From: an uncultured Bacteriovoracaceae bacterium | Lineage (GTDB): Bacteria > Bdellovibrionota > UBA1018 | Assembly: GCA_964407515.1 (NCBI GenBank) | Contig: CAYOWB010000003.1 | Span: forward strand, 1 to 41,745 | Reading direction: 5' to 3' | Length of the DNA: 41,745 bases | Shown: positions 2,175-35,845 of the stretch, piece by piece | Position numbering within the stretch: position 1 is the first letter of the stretch | Layout of the letters: each line of letters begins with the position of its first letter | The notes under the pieces: model-generated | What the model was told of the DNA's origin: nothing | Seen by the model: the letters and a program-made list of their open reading frames with translations, nothing else | Database searches by the model: none | Translations under genes and position numbers: made by a program

Positions 2175-3203
<1,029 letters not shown>

Positions 3204-5593: not shown

Positions 5594-6721
5594 ATGGCGT
5601 CTCTCCAGGAATTGGAAGCGGATCTTGGGGGAATAGGGGCTTGCGTGATTGATCATACGTTCTGGCAAGGCAAGAAAGTCTTTCTCACCGGGCATACCGG
5701 TTTCAAAGGGAGTTGGCTCTCGATTTGGCTGACGTCGCGCGGTGCGCGGGTCACCGGTTATGCACTTGAACCGCCTACGGAGCCCAGCCTGTTTCGCCTC
5801 TCCGGTCTCGAAAAGAAGATGACCTCGGAGATCGGCGATATTCGCGATCATGAGCGGCTTCGCAGCGCTCTCGAGAAGGCCGCACCCGAGATCGTGATCC
5901 ACATGGCGGCGCAGCCGCTGGTGCGTGAGTCGTACAAGACGCCTCGCGAGACCTATGAGACGAATGTCATGGGCACGGTGAATCTCTTTGAGGCCGTGAG
6001 GTCCACGCCGTCCGTCCGTGCGGTGGTCAATGTCACGACTGATAAGTGTTATGAGAACCGTGAATGGCCCTGGGGATATCGCGAGATCGACCCCATGGGC
6101 GGTTACGATCCTTACTCCAACAGCAAAGGCTGCTCCGAACTCGTGACGGCGGCCTATCGCTCTTCTTTCTTCAATCCGGCGGATTACGGAAAAAAGCACT
6201 CCGTAGCGGTTGCCAGTGCGCGCGCCGGTAATGTGATCGGTGGAGGCGACTGGGCGGCCGATCGCCTCGTGCCCGACTTCTTCAGAGCGGTGACGTCGGG
6301 AAAAGTAGTGCGGATTCGCAGTCCGCGGGCCATCCGCCCTTGGCAGCACGTGTTAGAGCCGCTGAGTGGCTACTTGGCGCTCGCGCAGCGGCTCTTCGAG
6401 GAAGGTCCGAAGTTCGCCGAAGGCTGGAATTTCGGCCCCGAAGACGTCGATGCCAAGCCGGTCGAATGGATGATTCGCTGGCTTTGCTCGCGCTGGGGCG
6501 AGGGGGCTTCCCTTGAGATCGATCGCGGCGAGCACGTCCACGAAGCAAGCTATCTGAAACTGGATATCTCCAAGGCGCGTTCCCAGCTGGATTGGGCGCC
6601 ACGATGGAACCTGGAACGGGCCCTCGATGCCTGCGTGGAGTGGAACAAGGCGTATGTCGCGGGGCAGCCCGCGTTTGAGACCTGCTTGAAACAGATTCGG
6701 GATTACGAAGAGAGGGTATGA
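5594..6721 (+). CDS. rfbG: CDP-glucose 4,6-dehydratase (DdhB/AscB)
   Basis: FWQGKKVFLTGHTGFKGSWLSIWL and YSNSKGCSELV (YxxxK). RfbG proteins that I recall begin at ...IDxxFWQGK, so GTG 5645 (VIDHTFWQGK) is a plausible alternative start. Confidence 0.93.
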   Translation: MASLQELEADLGGIGACVIDHTFWQGKKVFLTGHTGFKGSWLSIWLTSRGARVTGYALEPPTEPSLFRLSGLEKKMTSEIGDIRDHERLRSALEKAAPEIVIHMAAQPLVRESYKTPRETYETNVMGTVNLFEAVRSTPSVRAVVNVTTDKCYENREWPWGYREIDPMGGYDPYSNSKGCSELVTAAYRSSFFNPADYGKKHSVAVASARAGNVIGGGDWAADRLVPDFFRAVTSGKVVRIRSPRAIRPWQHVLEPLSGYLALAQRLFEEGPKFAEGWNFGPEDVDAKPVEWMIRWLCSRWGEGASLEIDRGEHVHEASYLKLDISKARSQLDWAPRWNLERALDACVEWNKAYVAGQPAFETCLKQIRDYEERV

Positions 6722-8031
6722 TGAACGAAGCACAGCTGAGAAAAGAGATTCTGGAAAAAGTCGCGCAGTATACGGCCCTGAAGCACGGAAAGCGGAGCTT
6801 CGAACCGGGAAAGGACCTGGTTCACTACGCGGGTCGCGTGTTTGATGCCGAGGAACTGAAGGCGGGCGTGGAGTCGGTACTCGACTTCTACCTGACGGCG
6901 GGGCGTTTCTCCGAACAGTTCGAAGCCGACTTTGCGGATCTTCTGGGAGTTTCGAGCGCGTTTCTCGTGAACTCCGGGTCTTCGGCCAATCTGGTGGCCG
7001 CGACCGCGTTGACTTCGCCGAAGCTCGGCGACCGTCGCCTCAAGCCGGGCGACGAAGTCCTGACCGTCGCGGCTGGATTTCCGACCACCGTGGCGCCGCT
7101 CGTTCAGAACGGTCTCGTTCCTGTGTTCATCGATGTGGGTTTGGGCGACTACACCGCGCTCCCCGAGCGGATCGAAAAGGCCATCGGCCCCAAGACCCGC
7201 GCCATCATGATGGCGCATACCATGGGTAATTCCTTCGACCTCGACGCCGTCATGGCTGCGGTCAAGAAGCATCACCTCTGGCTCGTGGAAGATAATTGCG
7301 ACGCGCTCGGCACCACGTATCGAGGCAAACTGACCGGTACTTACGGACATCTCGCGACGTTCTCATTCTATCCCGCCCATCACATCACCATGGGCGAAGG
7401 CGGCTGTGTCGTGACGAACGACGAAGAACTCGCTCGCATCGTTCGTTCCGTCCGTGATTGGGGCCGCGATTGCTACTGCAGCGGGGGTGAGAACAACACC
7501 TGCGGTAAGCGCTTCTCGATGCAGTTCGGGACGCTCCCTGTGGGCTTTGACCACAAGTACGTCTACTCGCACATCGGCTACAACCTCAAGACGACCGAGA
7601 TGCAGGCGGCAGTCGGCTGCGCTCAGCTCCGCAAGCTGTCGGGCTTCGTGGCCGCGCGCAAGAAGAACTTCCAGTACCTGCGCCAGGCGCTCGGTAAGTA
7701 CGAGGACCGTCTCATTCTCCCGCACGCCATGCCGAACTCTGATCCGTCGTGGTTCGGCTTCGTGATCACCGTGCGCGAGGACGCCGGATTCAGTCGCACG
7801 GACCTCGTGAAGCATCTTGAGATGAAGAAGGTCGAGACGCGCGCACTGTTCGCCGGAAATCTCCTGCGCCATCCGGCCTATATGAACATCCCGCATCGGC
7901 TTTCCGGGGGCCTCAAGAACACCGACCTCATTACTTCCGGCACGTTCTTCATCGGCGTGTATCCGGGGCTCGATGAGCAGAAGCTCGGCTACATGGTCGA
8001 GTGCTTCGATGAGTTCATGAAGGCGCGATAA
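6718..8031 (+). CDS. rfbH: CDP-6-deoxy-L-threo-D-glycero-4-hexulose 3-dehydrase (E1; RfbH/DdhC/AscC)
   Basis: DegT-fold protein with the E1 hallmarks. SFYPAHHITMGEGG has His in place of the PLP-binding Lys. The Cys pattern DNCDALG ... DCYCSGGENNTCGKRF (C-x-C-x7-C, nt 7471-7503) is the E1 [2Fe-2S] motif. ATGA overlap with rfbG. Confidence 0.92.
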   Translation: MMNEAQLRKEILEKVAQYTALKHGKRSFEPGKDLVHYAGRVFDAEELKAGVESVLDFYLTAGRFSEQFEADFADLLGVSSAFLVNSGSSANLVAATALTSPKLGDRRLKPGDEVLTVAAGFPTTVAPLVQNGLVPVFIDVGLGDYTALPERIEKAIGPKTRAIMMAHTMGNSFDLDAVMAAVKKHHLWLVEDNCDALGTTYRGKLTGTYGHLATFSFYPAHHITMGEGGCVVTNDEELARIVRSVRDWGRDCYCSGGENNTCGKRFSMQFGTLPVGFDHKYVYSHIGYNLKTTEMQAAVGCAQLRKLSGFVAARKKNFQYLRQALGKYEDRLILPHAMPNSDPSWFGFVITVREDAGFSRTDLVKHLEMKKVETRALFAGNLLRHPAYMNIPHRLSGGLKNTDLITSGTFFIGVYPGLDEQKLGYMVECFDEFMKAR

Positions 8032-8862
8032 TTATCCGGGATGGTGCCCCTTCGTCAGCACGTAGAAGACACTTGCCGGCCCGAAACGATGCAGGATGTG
8101 GGTTCGGTGGTAACAGCGATTCCAGGAGAACATCCGGGAGAAAACATCGTCGAAGAACATGGCGCGGGGCGACGAGTAGGTGGGGAGCCCAAGTTTCGAC
8201 AGAAGTTTGGATAAGGGTGAAAAGACGCAGAAGGATCGTTTCACCACCGTGAAGCCAGCCTTCCGGATCCGATCTTCGAAGAAGCTGTAAGGAATTCCTC
8301 GTTCCCGCTTGGTCAGTCCCGCGCGCGGGTGTCTCCAGTCGCCCATTGAGTGCAAAGGCTCACGGATGAGCGCATAGCCGCCTTCTGCCAGGCATCTGGA
8401 GATTTCCGAAAGCACGAACGAGACATTGGGAACGTGATGGAGCACTCCGAAGCAGGTGATCAAGTCGAACTGATTGTCAGCAAACGGAATTCGTCCGGAA
8501 CTCTGCGCCTTAGCGAATTCCACTGGGAAATCAAACGGGCGTTCCCGAACAAAGCTGTCCGATGCGTCGAGAATGGTGAGGTGTTCCAGTCTTGAGGAGA
8601 TGGGCCGGAACTCCTCGCCAAAGGCGCTGCCGAAACCGAGCGCCTTCTTGAAGACGCGGTTCTTTGGGAGATGTCGGAAGCCGAATCTCTCGTTGAGGGC
8701 GTGGTAAATATATACCGGGGACCGGGCATCCTCGTGTTCCAGCTGAGAATAACCCTCTTCCTCGTCGGCGTACCACAGGTCGATTTGCTCCTGGCTGAAG
8801 TCATCGCCGAACAGCGCATGACCGGAAAAAAAGCGATCCATCTTGGAGTGGTCTGTGGACAT
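8032..8862 (-). CDS. Class I SAM-dependent methyltransferase
   Basis: 276 aa. Motifs: KALGFGSAFGEEF ... LTILDASD (motif I/II-like), FDLITCFGVLHHVPN, and LAEGGYALIREP. It lies antisense to, and between, rfbH and the E3-like gene. Confidence 0.8.
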   Translation of the reverse strand: MSTDHSKMDRFFSGHALFGDDFSQEQIDLWYADEEEGYSQLEHEDARSPVYIYHALNERFGFRHLPKNRVFKKALGFGSAFGEEFRPISSRLEHLTILDASDSFVRERPFDFPVEFAKAQSSGRIPFADNQFDLITCFGVLHHVPNVSFVLSEISRCLAEGGYALIREPLHSMGDWRHPRAGLTKRERGIPYSFFEDRIRKAGFTVVKRSFCVFSPLSKLLSKLGLPTYSSPRAMFFDDVFSRMFSWNRCYHRTHILHRFGPASVFYVLTKGHHPG

Positions 8863-20260: not shown

Positions 20261-20968
20261 ATGGTGTGGCTGCGGCCCGTTTCTGATAAGGAATACTGTC
20301 ATGACCGGCTTGGAGCAGGCTTCTCTGGTGCCTTATCCGATTACGATACTCAACGACGAGTTGAGGTGCTGATCGGAGACTTTTTGGCAGATGAGGACCT
20401 CAATGGAAAAGAGGTGCTCGACGTGGGATGCGGATCTGGCCATTTCAGTCATGCCTTAAAGATGCGCGGTGCTCATGTTACGGCTTGCGATATTGGGCCC
20501 AACCTGGTGGCGCACGTTGCCGCAACGGTAGGTTGCAATGCGGTGGTCGCTGATGCCATGTCTCTTTCGGCCAAGTTCGGTTGTGGCCGGTTTGACTTAG
20601 TGGTGTCTTCGGAGTGTATTGAACACACGCCTGACCCGATAAAGTGTCTTTCCGAGTTTTCAAAGGTACTAAAACCTAACGGACTTCTGGTCGTCAGTAC
20701 CCCAAACCTCCTCTGGCAGCCCGTCGTACGACTCGCTAGTAGGATAAGAGCCCGTAGATTCGATGGACTGGAGAACTTTATCTCGTGGAGTGCGTTCCGT
20801 GATGCGCTCGAAGGGAACGGCGTCGGCATACTTCGCGAGTCAGGCCTCCACCTGTTTCCATTTCAGATTCCGTTCCATGGGGTGTCTCGTTGGTGTGACA
20901 GAAATCTGCAACGCCTTAGCTTCGTCATGATTAACATGTGCATTATGGGACGGAAGCAGGCAGGCTAG
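20261..20968 (+). CDS. Class I SAM-dependent methyltransferase
   Basis: VLDVGCGSGHFSHAL (motif I), FDLVVSSECIEH, LKPNGLLVVSTPN. AAGGAG lies 8 nt upstream of ATG 20261. The track start at 20189 is a TTG. Confidence 0.85.
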   Translation: MVWLRPVSDKEYCHDRLGAGFSGALSDYDTQRRVEVLIGDFLADEDLNGKEVLDVGCGSGHFSHALKMRGAHVTACDIGPNLVAHVAATVGCNAVVADAMSLSAKFGCGRFDLVVSSECIEHTPDPIKCLSEFSKVLKPNGLLVVSTPNLLWQPVVRLASRIRARRFDGLENFISWSAFRDALEGNGVGILRESGLHLFPFQIPFHGVSRWCDRNLQRLSFVMINMCIMGRKQAG

Positions 20969-23831: not shown

Positions 23832-24683
23832 ATGAATAGCTCGTATCTGATGGGCGCTGCAGCAACGGAAGAACTCCATATTGCCAGCGGACACATTGAA
23901 CAGCGTTATTGGAGAGATGTCTGGCGCTATCGGGAGCTATTTATGTTTCTAGCCTGGAGAGACATTCTCGTCCGCTATAAGCAGACCGTTATTGGTCTTA
24001 GTTGGAGCATCATCCGACCACTTATGACTATGGTGGTCTTCTCCATAGTTTTTGGCCGACTGGCGGGGCTTTCCTCTGGTTCGGTCCCATACATCCTCCT
24101 AGTGGGGGCCGCTACGTTGCCATGGCAGTTCTTTTCCAATGCACTTGGTGAGTGCAGTGCAAGTGTCATTGGAAACGCAGGTATGGTTTCTAAGGTCTAC
24201 TTCCCCAGGGTTATCATTCCGGTCAGCGCAGTGATTGTAAGCATTGCTGACTTCCTGATAGGATGTTCGATCCTTTTCTTTGTAATGGCTTTTTATAAGG
24301 TGGTGCCTAGCTGGCGTTTGCTGTGGTTACCCGCCTTTTTTGGAATAGCGGCTCTAGCGGCTCTAGGAGCAGGGTTATGGATGGCTGCTCTTACGGTGAG
24401 ATACAGGGACTTTAGACATGTTGTGCCGTTCTTGCTTCAGATTGGCTTCTATGTTTCACCTATTGGCTATAGCTCCAGCTTAGTTCCGCAGAAATGGCGG
24501 CTGTTGTATTCGCTGAACCCAATGGTTGGAGTAATTGATGGATTTCGCTGGGCGATACTGGGAGGGAATACGGAACTCTACTGGCCGGGGTTCTGCCTGT
24601 CGGTGGCTCTTGTTGTGGCTATTCTTGCCATTGGGGTAAGAGTGTTTAGAAGACTTGAATCGGAATTCGCCGATGTTATCTGA
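23832..24683 (+). CDS. wzm: ABC-2 type polysaccharide export permease (Wzm/TagG/KpsM family)
   Basis: YWRDVWRYRELFMFLAWRDILVRYKQTVIGLSWSIIRPLMTMVVFSIVF is the ABC-2 permease N-terminal signature. Six hydrophobic helices. AAGGA lies immediately upstream of the ATG. Confidence 0.9.
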   Translation: MNSSYLMGAAATEELHIASGHIEQRYWRDVWRYRELFMFLAWRDILVRYKQTVIGLSWSIIRPLMTMVVFSIVFGRLAGLSSGSVPYILLVGAATLPWQFFSNALGECSASVIGNAGMVSKVYFPRVIIPVSAVIVSIADFLIGCSILFFVMAFYKVVPSWRLLWLPAFFGIAALAALGAGLWMAALTVRYRDFRHVVPFLLQIGFYVSPIGYSSSLVPQKWRLLYSLNPMVGVIDGFRWAILGGNTELYWPGFCLSVALVVAILAIGVRVFRRLESEFADVI

Positions 24684-24703
24684 AATGGAGTAAGCTTCCT
24701 TTC

Positions 24704-25912
24704 ATGCGGATAGCGGTAGTTTCCGATTACTTTGATAATGGTGGTGCCGGGATCGCTTGTTCTCGGCTTGTTAAGGGAATGGCATCTGCAGGTCATCGTG
24801 TGGATCATTTTGCCCCTAGTAGCCAGGCAGCGAACTGCGTTCCGTACCACTCTGATGAGACTCCTGAGTACCGGCGGATACTTGTTAGTGGGGGCTTGAA
24901 TTTCCGTGGTGCCTCGCGCTTTTTGCGTACAGTCCCTCCCGACTGGAGGAAGCGAATCGAATGCGGGCTTTGGTCTCGCTCCTTGGCTGAGCTCATCAAA
25001 GACAGAATCGATGACGTAATTTGGATGCACAATATCCATCAATCTCCATGGAGCCTCTCCACTGTGTTGGCATTGAGAAGGCTTGCGCCTGTAGTCTGTA
25101 CCATGCACGATTGCTGGTTCAGTCATGGATATGCATATGAATACCCAGCCTTGAGAGGGCGCAAAAGAATCGTCATCGACCCGTCCTGTGGTGCTTCTTG
25201 GCAGCGAGAAAAGCTGTTCCGCAAGGACTCTGGTGTCCTGTGGGTTACCCCCTCGGAGTGGCTTCGCGGTGAGGTCCTCTTGAAATTTCCGTCAGCTAAT
25301 GTGCAGTGCATACCGAACGGGATTGATCCGGCTAACTATCGCATTGTGGATCGAGGTATTGCCCGTCAGGCTCTTGGGATTCCGGTCGACCGGAGAGTCA
25401 TCGCCCTTTCCTCCGTCGATTTGTCCGACGACCGTAAAGGAGTAGACATTGTAATCGAAGCGTTAAACCGGTCCCGTGAATGCTCGGACGTCCTCCTGTT
25501 GGGGCTGGGAGGCGGCACGACGCCTTCGGAGCTTGCTTCCAGGTATTTCTCCTTTGGATATGTTAAGAACACCGAGCTTCAGTCTTTGATTTATAGTGCC
25601 GCTGATGCGCTTGTTATCCCCAGTAGAGTAGATAACCTTCCAAATGTGGGAATAGAGGCTTTATTCTGCGGTGTTCCAATTATTGCCTCAAATAGCGGCG
25701 GCCAGAGGGAGTTGGCGAGCCATGGCTGCGGTGTGGTTTTTCCAATTGAGAGCCAGCCGGTGAATTTGCCGCTGCTTCTTCAGCAGGCAAAGAAACTCGG
25801 TGAAGACCGAAGTGTCCTTAGAGAAAGGGCCATCAAGAAGTATTCTTTGCAGCAAGCGGTCATGAGGTATTCAGCAGCGTTCACTTCAACTAAGCTGCGG
25901 CAGAACTCCTAA
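24704..25912 (+). CDS. GT-B fold glycosyltransferase, family 4 type
   Basis: MRIAVVSDYFDNGGAGIACSRL at the N-terminus. The C-terminal domain has LVIPSRVDNLPNVGIEALFCGVPIIASNSGGQRELA (E-x7-E region). Confidence 0.85.
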   Translation: MRIAVVSDYFDNGGAGIACSRLVKGMASAGHRVDHFAPSSQAANCVPYHSDETPEYRRILVSGGLNFRGASRFLRTVPPDWRKRIECGLWSRSLAELIKDRIDDVIWMHNIHQSPWSLSTVLALRRLAPVVCTMHDCWFSHGYAYEYPALRGRKRIVIDPSCGASWQREKLFRKDSGVLWVTPSEWLRGEVLLKFPSANVQCIPNGIDPANYRIVDRGIARQALGIPVDRRVIALSSVDLSDDRKGVDIVIEALNRSRECSDVLLLGLGGGTTPSELASRYFSFGYVKNTELQSLIYSAADALVIPSRVDNLPNVGIEALFCGVPIIASNSGGQRELASHGCGVVFPIESQPVNLPLLLQQAKKLGEDRSVLRERAIKKYSLQQAVMRYSAAFTSTKLRQNS

Positions 25913-26612
25913 AACGTCCAAACAGCTTTTGCTTTATGCTTCGCAGATAGGCTGATCGGTGCAGGAAGGAATACTCCCTGCCGGTCCCGGAAACGTGAAC
26001 TAATATAAAGCCCATCTGCCGAAGCTGCTCAAGGGCTGTTTCCGTATCAGACCAGGAGAACCCGTGGAGTCCATGATGAAACTCGACCAAAAGCTGGGTG
26101 ATCGGGACCGGTTTAGAACTTAACTCCGAAATTACGGCGTATTCGGAACCTTCAATATCCATTTTTAGAACGTCGATGTGTTGATGACCGCGCTCCGCCA
26201 GTATGGTTGTGAGTCTTTTCACTGGAAGCTGCATGGGGGCAGTGTCTTTTCTCGAGTACGACAAGCTTACATGCTGGGGGTTCTCCGGCATGAAGAACTC
26301 CAGTGTGCCGTCAATGTTGTGGACGCCGTGCGGGTTCATTACAAATCTGCCCGAAATGCCGGCATTTTTCGCGAATGAGATCGCGCGCGGAGTAGGATCA
26401 AAAGCGTGTACTAAGACGCCAAACTTTTCGATTAATCCCGAATCCCAGGAGATATCCTCCCCAACCCCGAATGAATAGACCACCGAGCCGGAATTAATGA
26501 GCGTAGGGCAAAAGGTCCAACAGCCGTATTCGCTTCCTAACGACATAAGCTCGGGAAGTAATGCCTTTCTCAAGCTGTTCGTTATACGTTGAAAAACTGA
26601 CCGTAGCTTCAT
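25890..26612 (-). CDS. FkbM-family SAM-dependent methyltransferase
   Basis: VVYSFGVGEDISWDSGLIEKFGVLVHAFDPTP and IDVLKMDIEGSEYAVI are the FkbM family motifs. Its 3' end overlaps the convergent GT4 gene by 23 nt. Confidence 0.85.
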   Translation of the reverse strand: MKLRSVFQRITNSLRKALLPELMSLGSEYGCWTFCPTLINSGSVVYSFGVGEDISWDSGLIEKFGVLVHAFDPTPRAISFAKNAGISGRFVMNPHGVHNIDGTLEFFMPENPQHVSLSYSRKDTAPMQLPVKRLTTILAERGHQHIDVLKMDIEGSEYAVISELSSKPVPITQLLVEFHHGLHGFSWSDTETALEQLRQMGFILVHVSGTGREYSFLHRSAYLRSIKQKLFGRFRSSAAA

Positions 26613-26690
26613 AGGGCTCTCTGCTTTCCGGAGAATGACACAGGAACTAAAGGCTTTTCTTCAATCCTGGTAAGAGGATATGGTAATTCC

Positions 26691-27960
26691 ATGGATACCG
26701 TAGTTCAAGTCGAGGCGCTGTCAAAGCGATATCAGATTAGGCACCAGTCTCGGGCTCGGGATGTCACCTTTCGCGAGGCAGTGTCTCAGTCGCTCCGGAG
26801 GGCTTTTACTCGCACTCTAGGTAGAAAGGTTCAGCCGACGCCGAACACAGAAGAGTTTTGGGCGTTGCGTGACGTCTCGTTCAAGGTCCAAGCGGGGGAC
26901 CGCATTGGGATTATTGGGAGAAACGGAGCTGGCAAGTCTACTCTGCTAAAGGTCTTGAGCCGGATCACTCAGCCTACCCTTGGAAGGGTGATCCTCCGCG
27001 GCCGCGTTGCAAGTCTATTGGAGGTCGGGACAGGCTTTCATCCCGAGCTTTCTGGCCGCGAGAATATCTTTCTGAATGGTGCCGTCTTGGGTATGAGTCA
27101 GGCGGAAATTCGGAAGAAATTCGACGCAATCGTTGCGTTCGCCGACGTAGAGAAGTTTCTTGATACGCCGGTGAAGCGCTACTCGAGTGGAATGTATGTG
27201 CGCCTCGCATTTGCTGTTGCCGCCCATCTAGAGCCAGAGATCCTTATTGTTGACGAAGTACTGGCTGTGGGTGACTCCCAGTTCCAGAAGAAATGTATCG
27301 GAAAGATGGAAGAAGCGGGACGCGAGGGTAAGACTATCCTTTTCGTAAGCCACAACATGCTCACAGTAGGAGCTATTTGTAACCGTGGTCTTGTCCTGCG
27401 TAATGGACAGGTGACCTTTGATGGAAAGGCAAAAGCAGCAATCGAGCACTACTTGGATGTCGCCCAGAGTGGAATGTCGCTCGACTTGTCGTCTAGGACG
27501 GACCGCTCGGGGGATGGCAGATTTCGCTTCACTAAGGCTTGGGTGGAGGGGGTCCGGACGGATTACCGAATCGGTCGTAAGTGGAGAGGATGTCAGACTT
27601 GTTGTCGAGTATGAGTCATCTGATGGGAAGCCAGTCATCGATATGCAAACTGCGATTGCTCTGAACGGAGCATATGGGGAGCAAATTGCGGATCTATGGA
27701 GCGCGGCCGCCGATGACACATGGAGTAGTGCTCCTGCCAAAGGGCGGATCGTTTGCACCTTGCCGCGCTTACCTCTAAATGCTGGGCGGTATTCGTTTAA
27801 CGTCTGTGGTAGGGCTCAGCAACAAGTGGCAGATTTCTTGATGTACGCCGGCAGTTTCGAGGTGCTGCAGGGGGACTTTTTCGGCACAGGTAAAATGCCT
27901 GATCCGCATCAGGGTTACTTCTTACTGCAGCAGCGCTGGCTTAATGTGCCGTCGGAATAG
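26691..27960 (+). pseudogene. wzt: ABC transporter ATP-binding protein Wzt with a C-terminal glycan-binding-type domain, frameshifted at a G5 run (ORFs 26691-27614 and 27418-27960)
   Basis: NBD motifs: GIIGRNGAGKSTLLKVL (Walker A), YSSGMYVRLAFAVA (signature), ILIVDEVLAVGD (Walker B), LFVSHNM. After ...RSGDGRFRFTKAWVEG the frame is lost. The +1 frame continues SGRITESVVSGEDVRLVVEYESSDGKPV...GRYSFNV..., which is Wzt_C-like. Confidence 0.85.
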
Positions 27961-27970
27961 CGAGTCAGAT

Positions 27971-29119
27971 ATGGCGAAAACAAGACTTTTGAAAGCTTCT
28001 TCCTATTACGATGTGGTGTTTGACGTGGTTTACGGAAGTAATCCTGAGCTCAGTACGGCTGGGTATCAATCACAGTACCAGAAATTGATGGAGTTCTCTT
28101 TCGCCTCCGCCGATAGCTGGAAACGGTATTTGGAGGCACGCGGTGACTTCGAAGTTATGGAGGTCATCGTGAATGCTGAGAGCCTGCAAAAGGCTTGGGC
28201 TAAAGAGAACGGCATAGCTGTCCGATCGGAGGGCTGGGCTTTGAAGATCTTGGAGGCACAGATTGCCGAGTTCCGACCTGATATCGTTTTTGTTCATGAC
28301 TTCGCTATTGTAAACTCGGCCTTTCGAGTTGCTCTACGTAGGAAGTATCCCTTTATCCGTCTTATGTTCGGATGGGATGGCATAGCGATCAATGACTGTA
28401 AGATGTTTGAAGGCTGCGATCTAATGCTCACGTGTCTTTCCAAGACGGCTCAGTCTTATTCCTCCCAGGGTATGCCTGCTGAGCTATTACACTATGGCTT
28501 CGACGAGACGGTCTTGGAACGTCTTGGGTTGGTCACGCAAGATATAGAGGCTTCTTTTGTTGGGTCTATATTCCTGTGGCAAGGAGCGCATCATCGGCGT
28601 CTGGCAACTTTAGCGGCCCTTGACCGTAAATTTCCTCTCCAGTTCTGGGTTAGCGGAATGGACGAATGGCGTCCATGTTGCTCGGAGCAGCTGAGTCGAC
28701 TGAAACGCTTTCGTCTCCGGCAGTTTTCCGATGTGTGGAGGCTAGGCCAGAAGAACCGTGGAAAAGCATTCGGACTGGATATGTATCGCTTGCTGGCTCG
28801 TTCAAAGGTATCTCTAAACGTTCACATCGACAGGGCTGGAGAAGAGGCTGCAAACATTCGTCTAATAGAGGCCACAGGAACGGGTACTTGTCTCTTGACT
28901 GATTGGAAGCCTAATCTGTCGAATTGGTTTGAAGAAGACAAAGAGGTGGTCACTTTTCGGTCGTCCGGAGAGTGCGCGGAAAAGTTGAAGTGGTTGATCA
29001 ATCATCCAGCCGAGCGAGAGGCAATCGCGACGGCGGGGAGACGGCGCACCTTATCTCAGTTCTCATTTAAGAAGAGAATGAATGAAGTCTTTCCTAAGAT
29101 CTTAAGGTATCTGCCCTAG
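27971..29119 (+). CDS. CgeB-like glycosyltransferase (Glyco_trans_1_2 / DUF3880-type)
   Basis: ASFVGSIF..., SKVSLNVHIDRAGEEAANIRLIEATGTGTCLLTDWKPNLSNWFEEDKEVVTFRSSGECAEKLKWLINHPAEREAIATAGRRRTL. This fits the CgeB-family C-terminal pattern. ATG 27971 follows the wzt stop by 10 nt. Confidence 0.7.
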   Translation: MAKTRLLKASSYYDVVFDVVYGSNPELSTAGYQSQYQKLMEFSFASADSWKRYLEARGDFEVMEVIVNAESLQKAWAKENGIAVRSEGWALKILEAQIAEFRPDIVFVHDFAIVNSAFRVALRRKYPFIRLMFGWDGIAINDCKMFEGCDLMLTCLSKTAQSYSSQGMPAELLHYGFDETVLERLGLVTQDIEASFVGSIFLWQGAHHRRLATLAALDRKFPLQFWVSGMDEWRPCCSEQLSRLKRFRLRQFSDVWRLGQKNRGKAFGLDMYRLLARSKVSLNVHIDRAGEEAANIRLIEATGTGTCLLTDWKPNLSNWFEEDKEVVTFRSSGECAEKLKWLINHPAEREAIATAGRRRTLSQFSFKKRMNEVFPKILRYLP

Positions 29120-35155: not shown

Positions 35156-35845
35156 ATGTCGTTTGTTCATCCAAAGATTGTTGAGCTGAGAAAAATACAT
35201 TTGGGATGCGGCCAGAAATATCTGTCTGGTTACGTCAATATCGACTTTCCCATTTCAGAGCACACGGTTCAGGAGAGGTCGCTGGCTGATGTACATCACG
35301 ACTTACTGGAGCTGCGCCTTAATGCCGCTAGTCTGGATGAGATTCGCCTTCATCACGTTTTTGAACACTTTCCTCGTCCCGTCGCTTTGGCTCTGCTCGC
35401 TGCTTGGGCACGTTGGTTAAGGCCGGGCGGAAAGCTTCATGTAGAAGTGCCTGACTTCACAAGGACTGCGTTAAGCGTTTTGAATCCACTGAAAAGTGAT
35501 CGAGCTAGGCGGACCGGATTGCGGCATTTGTTCGGATCGAACGAGGCTGAATGGGCGACCCACTATGAGGGTTGGACGAGAAGGAACTTCGTGGAGGCAG
35601 CGAAGTTCATGGGCTTCCCCAAGATTTCGGTGCAGAGGTCTTGTTGGCAGAATACGTTTAACATTGAGTTCTTCGCCGTTACCTCGGACGTGTTGCCTTC
35701 CCGCGATGGGGCAGTTCGAAATGCACGGCAATTTCTCAAGGGGTTCACCCTCGATGATTCTGTGGGCGAGCTAAGATTGCTAGACATATGGATTAAGGAG
35801 TTCCAACAGCAGTTAGAGAAGTCGTGGCCCGAAGAGAGTCACTGA
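35156..35845 (+). CDS. Class I SAM-dependent methyltransferase (Methyltransf_11/23-like)
   Basis: KIHLGCGQKYLSGYVNIDF, IRLHHVFEHF, LRPGGKLHVEVPDF. Confidence 0.75.
   Translation: MSFVHPKIVELRKIHLGCGQKYLSGYVNIDFPISEHTVQERSLADVHHDLLELRLNAASLDEIRLHHVFEHFPRPVALALLAAWARWLRPGGKLHVEVPDFTRTALSVLNPLKSDRARRTGLRHLFGSNEAEWATHYEGWTRRNFVEAAKFMGFPKISVQRSCWQNTFNIEFFAVTSDVLPSRDGAVRNARQFLKGFTLDDSVGELRLLDIWIKEFQQQLEKSWPEESH

Follow-up and report, generated by a model that had tools for sequence, protein, structure and literature searches.

A frame break inside the binding domain of Wzt in a Bacteriovoracaceae draft genome, and its possible origins

The closest described systems are those of Aquifex aeolicus and Escherichia coli. 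The full-length Wzt of A. aeolicus WzmWzt (7k2t, 8dku; PMC9445017) is organised as an NBD, a hinge helix, an NBD-CBD linker (residues 241-249) and a jelly-roll binding domain. Export of the capped O antigen requires the binding domain, which can also be supplied in trans: expressed separately, it restores export by a truncated WzmWzt (PMC9445017). For Wzt of E. coli O9a/O8, the structure of the cap-binding C-terminal domain (2R5O) is cited in both PMC6286764 and PMC9445017, and the E. coli domains have been split experimentally at the domain boundary.

Here we describe a wzt gene from an uncultured Bacteriovoracaceae bacterium whose product, once its two reading frames are joined, has the same domain order as A. 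aeolicus Wzt and, like the E. coli proteins, belongs to the Pfam Wzt_C family. The comparisons gave no direct sequence match to 2R5O itself. As in A. aeolicus, a Wzm-type ABC-2 permease is encoded in the locus, and the methyltransferase genes found there could supply a terminal cap comparable to that of E. coli O8. Unlike in A. aeolicus, a GT4 gene and an antisense methyltransferase gene stand between wzm and wzt, and the wzt ORF breaks past strand 1 of the binding domain. This break therefore lies inside a domain, whereas the E. coli protein was divided at the domain boundary.

The wzt gene and its surroundings

The window, that is the whole stretch of DNA analysed, is the first 41,745 nt of a 59,119-nt scaffold (C3) in the draft assembly. 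It is the longest N-free stretch in that assembly, where the median piece is 3.5 kb and the next longest 30 kb. We also see that it ends exactly at a run of 168 N. Around the wzt region, the rest of the window codes for sugar-nucleotide enzymes, glycosyltransferases and methyltransferases. The features nearest the frame break are as follows.

23832..24683, + strand: wzm, the ABC-2 type permease partner (Pfam ABC2_membrane, 5.5e-19)
24704-25912: GT4 glycosyltransferase, between wzm and wzt
25890..26612, - strand: FkbM-family methyltransferase, between wzm and wzt (Pfam Methyltransf_21, 1.8e-14)
26691..27551, + strand: wzt upstream frame, with the ABC NBD, hinge/linker and first Wzt_C β-strand (frame A residues 1-287 plus Gly288 at 27549-27551)
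27548..27552, + strand: G5 run and frame-change site, read from the sequence; the homologue alignment brackets the junction at ...AWVEG|SGRITES...
27552..27614, + strand: out-of-frame tail of frame A, 20 codons and then a stop
27553..27960, + strand: wzt downstream frame, the rest of Wzt_C, 135 codons and then a stop
27944..29119, + strand: glycosyltransferase-like gene, from the ORF list (Pfam Glyco_trans_1_2, 2e-29)

The permease partner that belongs with a Wzt system is present, at 23832-24683. The two genes wzm and wzt do not lie side by side within 23832-27960. Methyltransferase genes with a putative cap role occur at 25890-26612, 20189-20968, 8032-8862 and 35156-35845, and the FkbM-family gene among them might be considered, as a candidate only, for the chain-terminating cap enzyme.

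As given, the sequence does not encode the NBD and the binding domain in one uninterrupted ORF, owing to a +1 shift at 27548-27552. Frame A (26691-27614) runs as far as ...DRSGDGRFRFTKAWVEG and then into 20 unrelated codons, which translate as VRTDYRIGRKWRGCQTCCRV*. Frame B (27418-27960) reads ...WRGSGRITESVVSGEDVRLVVEYESSDGKPVIDM...GRYSFNVCG...FEVLQGDFF..., also includes ...WRGSGRITESVVSGEDV..., and has its stop codon at 27958-27960. The five Gs lie inside GAGGGGGTCC with the codon layout GAG GGG G|TCC. The span 26691-27960 is 1270 nt long, or 3n+1, and with one G fewer wzt becomes a continuous ORF of 422 codons. The initial annotation had described these frames, the G5 run and the 1270-nt span, and all of its sequence statements hold on re-reading; its view that wzt carries a single-base lesion is likewise upheld, as the G4 read-through is continuous and aligns to intact homologues.

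Neither side of the junction shows decay. The upstream end, ...GDGRFRFTKAWVEG, aligns to the homologues and to positions 2-19 of the Wzt_C profile. The downstream frame has no internal stop in its 135 codons and is conserved against the homologues, with GDFFGTGK and W416 kept in all of those aligned. An alignment of the frame A tail (27552..27614) gave no similarity to the homologues. The start of the glycosyltransferase-like gene overlaps the frame B stop by 17 nt, which preserves the operon geometry in that frame.

The identity of the protein is supported by several comparisons. Frame A matches Pfam ABC_tran (4e-22, residues 59-190) and contains GRNGAGKST (Walker A), YSSGM (signature), ILIVDE (Walker B) and SHN (H-loop), and the best PDB matches are Wzt, TarH/TagH and RfbE. 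Frame B by itself scores 28.0 bits against Pfam Wzt_C (PF14524), which is under the gathering score of 30.4 bits. That score is passed only by the read-through with one G fewer, which reaches 34.6 bits over residues 270-394 (profile 2-132), spanning the junction at residue 288; a search of the fused translation against this profile had been proposed with the initial annotation, and it comes out above the cut-off. Among 5.8 billion clustered proteins the nearest relatives found are two intact, uncharacterised homologues, P0003 (414 aa) and P0004 (436 aa), both from metagenomes and both single ORFs with the same PF00005 + PF14524 architecture. They are 54-57% identical to the joined Wzt overall and 46-47% identical over residues 230-422 (the C-terminal 193 residues), and their alignment crosses the junction without a gap in register: at this point ...GDGRFRFTKAWVEGS-G-RITESVVSGEDVRLVV stands opposite ...GSGALRFVEAWIEDSAG-RPVETVRTGEEIRIVL. 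The best solved relative, full-length A. aeolicus Wzt, aligns over residues 50-371 in one stretch (E 2e-63). The assignment of the gene as wzt, with an ABC NBD and a Wzt_C domain, is thus one on which Pfam, the homologues and A. aeolicus Wzt agree. Because the joined Wzt_C match, the intact homologues and A. aeolicus Wzt all span the junction, frames A and B are parts of one ancestral 422-codon wzt ORF and not a chance overlap.

Other copies of the locus were also sought. The pattern AAGGCTTGGGTGGAG N{2,6} TCCGGACGGATTACC, which allows any run length, has no match in the genome or metagenome contig collections, and the 307-aa frame A product is found on no other record. The genome collection searched includes no genome of the same genus, and the best relatives there match only the NBD, at ~49%. 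Over the C-terminal part, the protein search gave no match above 47%, and no copy from the same species turned up.

Position of the break within Wzt

In the alignment with A. aeolicus Wzt, the counterpart of the junction G288|S289 is S267|E268, ~18 residues beyond the NBD-CBD linker; on the Wzt_C profile the junction corresponds approximately to position 20. By this alignment the break is inside Wzt_C, after the first β-strand, and not in the linker that joins the NBD to the binding domain. The initial annotation had placed it between the NBD and the binding domain, a placement that has to be revised given the PDB alignment and the published linker (PMC9445017). It had also mentioned reports of the two modules working when expressed separately. 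The experiments in trans bear this out (PMC9445017), but they are a poor guide to this gene, as neither of its two fragments would include a whole binding domain.

Frame breaks across the assembly

The assembly comprises 280 scaffolds (3.63 Mb, N50 17 kb, 79.8% completeness) and contains 466 N runs, including 150 of exactly 10 N. Its gyrA places it in the Bacteriovoracaceae, with 80-81% identity to other MAGs of that family. For a survey of frame breaks, 2.4 Mb of a genome of the same family (G005; gyrA 78% identical) served as the yardstick. Its ORFs were compared with this genome by tblastn, and for 737 ORFs the best match reached 45% identity or more. In 52 of the 737, neighbouring aligned pieces lay in different frames, with 35 of the changes at N runs and 17 away from N. 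Inspection and an exhaustive single-edit test indicate that ~13-15 of these 17 are repaired by a single edit of 1-2 nt. The detectable frameshift rate is ~1 per 50 kb of conserved coding sequence. Matches at C107 (nuoC/nuoD, which are fused in the relative) and at C113 (an ATGA overlap) were rejected as gene-boundary effects. The affected genes include those listed here, with scaffold and approximate position.

C71 ~11500: frameshift in trpS (tryptophan-tRNA ligase), NCBIfam, single copy
C30 ~23438: frameshift in leuS (leucine-tRNA ligase), NCBIfam, single copy
C81 ~12240: frameshift in mrdA (PBP2), NCBIfam, single copy
C255 ~1075: frameshift in lpxA, NCBIfam, single copy
C23 ~24575: frameshift in transketolase (tkt), NCBIfam, single copy
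C166 ~585: frameshift in relA/spoT, NCBIfam, single copy
C8 ~4623: frameshift in hemC, NCBIfam, single copy
C37 ~14360: frameshift in rne (RNase E/G), identified by alignment only, single copy
C1 ~23950: frameshift at a C10 run in a PBP1-like gene, identified by alignment only

Copy number was checked for eight of these genes (trpS, leuS, mrdA, lpxA, tkt, relA, hemC and rne). Among the core-gene lesions, some alter a single base of a homopolymer (C10, T3, A3) and so belong to the same class as the wzt lesion. In the relA lesion, a segment of ~35 nt occurs twice in a row as diverged copies, an arrangement typical of a wrongly resolved strain bubble. After a flank-identity filter there are 2-3 credible in-frame stops in conserved genes, and a stop codon is found in the conserved GCTHYP motif, which reads GCTH*PW (C43 ~4770). 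Most of the raw in-frame stops in the tblastn matches were discarded as artefacts of over-extended query ORFs. Because a free-living bacterium cannot carry all those lesions, the assembly contains indel and substitution errors.

This conclusion is based on inspection of individual lesions and on gene essentiality, and not on the reverse survey, in which ORFs of this genome were compared with G005. The reverse survey gave 15 frame switches in 581 genes and is not a clean control, many of the switches lying next to A/T homopolymers of G005, which is probably an incompletely polished long-read assembly. Switches of this type in G005 occur at C4 ~637597 and ~619139, and include homologues of the window genes 2175-3203 and 6718-8031.

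The window itself contains 4-5 indel lesions including that in wzt, mostly at short homopolymers. At least three genes besides wzt are affected.

13084-13100, - strand: lesion in gmd (GDP-mannose 4,6-dehydratase; gene 13084-14043), which ends ...GWKLP*
10748-10752, - strand: lesion at a G5 run in a GT39-like GT-C gene (9688-10917), where four homologues are continuous, ...YYLD..VC.GEWG|GGDP.R.P...
19549-19581, + strand: perfect 16-bp tandem duplication (GGAAGTGTATTTATTG x2) in a DUF6056 membrane-protein gene (18679-20110)

The conserved C-terminus of Gmd is picked up in a different frame, which extends as far as an ATGA overlap with fcl (12082-13017). The two halves of the DUF6056 gene correspond to successive stretches of the Pfam profile (58-271 and 288-438), and removing one copy of the duplicated unit restores the frame; elsewhere in the genome there are ~8 other perfect tandem duplications that disrupt ORFs. 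The GT39-like gene probably has a second shift near its N-terminus, at a T4 run (10857-10860). Short homopolymers account for 4 of 5 lesions in the window, as against ~3 of 14 in the core genes. In terms of density, the window has 2-3 survey-detectable lesions where ~0.7 would be expected from the core-gene rate, a modest excess (Poisson P ~0.03-0.15). Counts of repeated 14-mers, used as a test for possible contig joints, are within the control range at the window lesions.

Origin of the extra G

We lean towards the extra G in wzt being a consensus or assembly error. Error is favoured over biology because the draft genome also has frameshifts in essential single-copy genes, and because both halves of wzt are undecayed and the operon overlap is kept, the shift would be either very recent or not real. 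Sequencing error had been one of the options in the initial annotation; it gains from the genome-wide frameshifts, and it is from these lesions that we infer it for the wzt site, where it is more likely that this particular G is one of the assembly's errors. The organism would then most likely have an intact 422-residue Wzt, consisting of an ABC ATPase and a C-terminal carbohydrate-binding domain. That domain would recognise the capped end of the glycan, and Wzt would act with Wzm to export an undecaprenyl-linked polysaccharide, the deposited G being an error in a low-quality scaffolded MAG. Several points count against this. The longest N-free stretch in the assembly argues against especially poor local coverage, the lesion density and homopolymer-rich spectrum of the window differ from those of the core genes, and a consensus error from G4 to G5 would be unusual if the data are Illumina. 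Short homopolymers are, moreover, natural hot spots of real frameshift mutations too. A serious rival, which we consider plausible though on balance doubtful, is a real and recent +1 frameshift, whether fixed in the population or polymorphic, that destroys the binding domain of Wzt while the surface-glycan cluster is being switched off. Decay of a glycan cluster would be biologically coherent: after a failure of export or synthesis, further lesions in the pathway would be tolerated or even selected, as blocked late steps sequester undecaprenyl phosphate. Independent indels in gmd, the GT39-like gene, the DUF6056 gene and wzt fall within 18 kb of one glycan locus, at ~3-4x the core-gene rate, in the best-assembled region of the genome, and short-homopolymer slips and a tandem duplication are typical of spontaneous mutation. 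However, the locus has ~33 other genes that are intact, and nonsense codons, deletions and decay are absent downstream of every lesion. Duplications like that in the DUF6056 gene recur genome-wide, and the presence of impossible lesions in essential genes of the same assembly makes a frameshift here weak evidence of biology. The better assembly of the glycan locus could reflect a different depth, less strain variation or a gap-closing step.

The remaining explanations give the extra G a function, and we consider each of them far less probable than loss or error. Surface-glycan genes are often phase-variable in other bacteria, and a single-G lesion in a homopolymer within such a gene would be compatible with a slipped-strand contingency tract that reversibly turns glycan export on and off. 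We regard this as very unlikely, given how common such runs are: with 3,340 G/C runs of 5 and 800 of at least 6 in the genome, the G5 in wzt is unremarkable and not an unusually long simple-sequence tract, and the phase-variation option of the initial annotation loses ground accordingly. Known contingency tracts usually have at least 7 units, and the homologues, which have different residues here, reveal no conserved G tract by alignment. Continued export of the glycan despite a real frameshift deserves scarcely any credence; it would call for a jelly-roll rebuilt by strand complementation between two polypeptides, or for full-length Wzt made by a +1 slip on GGG-G. Least probable of all is a functional arrangement of either kind as such, be it a split into an NBD with strand 1 and a binding domain minus strand 1 that reassemble, or a programmed +1 shift on GGG-G beside the Shine-Dalgarno-like GGAGG (27545-27549). 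The rescue of export by an isolated binding domain (PMC9445017) speaks for the split, but the cut here is inside the jelly-roll domain and not in the linker, and none of the candidate start codons of the downstream part (TTG 27418, ATG 27457, ATG 27514) has a spaced ribosome-binding site; ATG 27514 directly adjoins a GGGGG. For a programmed shift, GAG-GGG-G would permit perfect re-pairing of the Gly tRNA after a +1 slip. It is nonetheless unlikely because the homologues are single ORFs, so that the shift is not conserved, because GGAGG overlaps the slip codon where the prfB element lies ~3 nt upstream, and because the next (A-site) codon, GUC, is an ordinary one, neither a stop nor obviously slow. 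The hallmarks of prfB-like +1 frameshifting, namely conservation, a slow or stop codon and a spaced Shine-Dalgarno-like element, are thus lacking at this site.

If strand complementation or a +1 slip did operate, export would be tunable in a predatory Bacteriovoracaceae bacterium. A real lesion would represent an ordinary loss of surface glycan by frameshift, unusual only in cutting into the cap-binding domain of Wzt and not between modules; neither this outcome nor an error raises a new question. In either case the locus is a useful catalogue entry for a Wzm/Wzt-type, probably cap-controlled glycan export system in Bacteriovoracaceae. Should the G be an error, the MAG calls for polishing at the read level, and its frame breaks, including the other lesions of the glycan locus, should not be taken as pseudogenes or switches.

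As a minor observation on the same assembly, many scaffold ends carry a tandem-repeat family with units of 25-31 nt and a core like CGCTGGCGAAG(T/G), examples being C154:689-920, C81:1-55, C122:48-139, C155:8566-8698, C123:10945-11049 and C211:1-77. Perfect tandem repeats with a period of 10-64 are located at scaffold ends in 38 of 105 cases.
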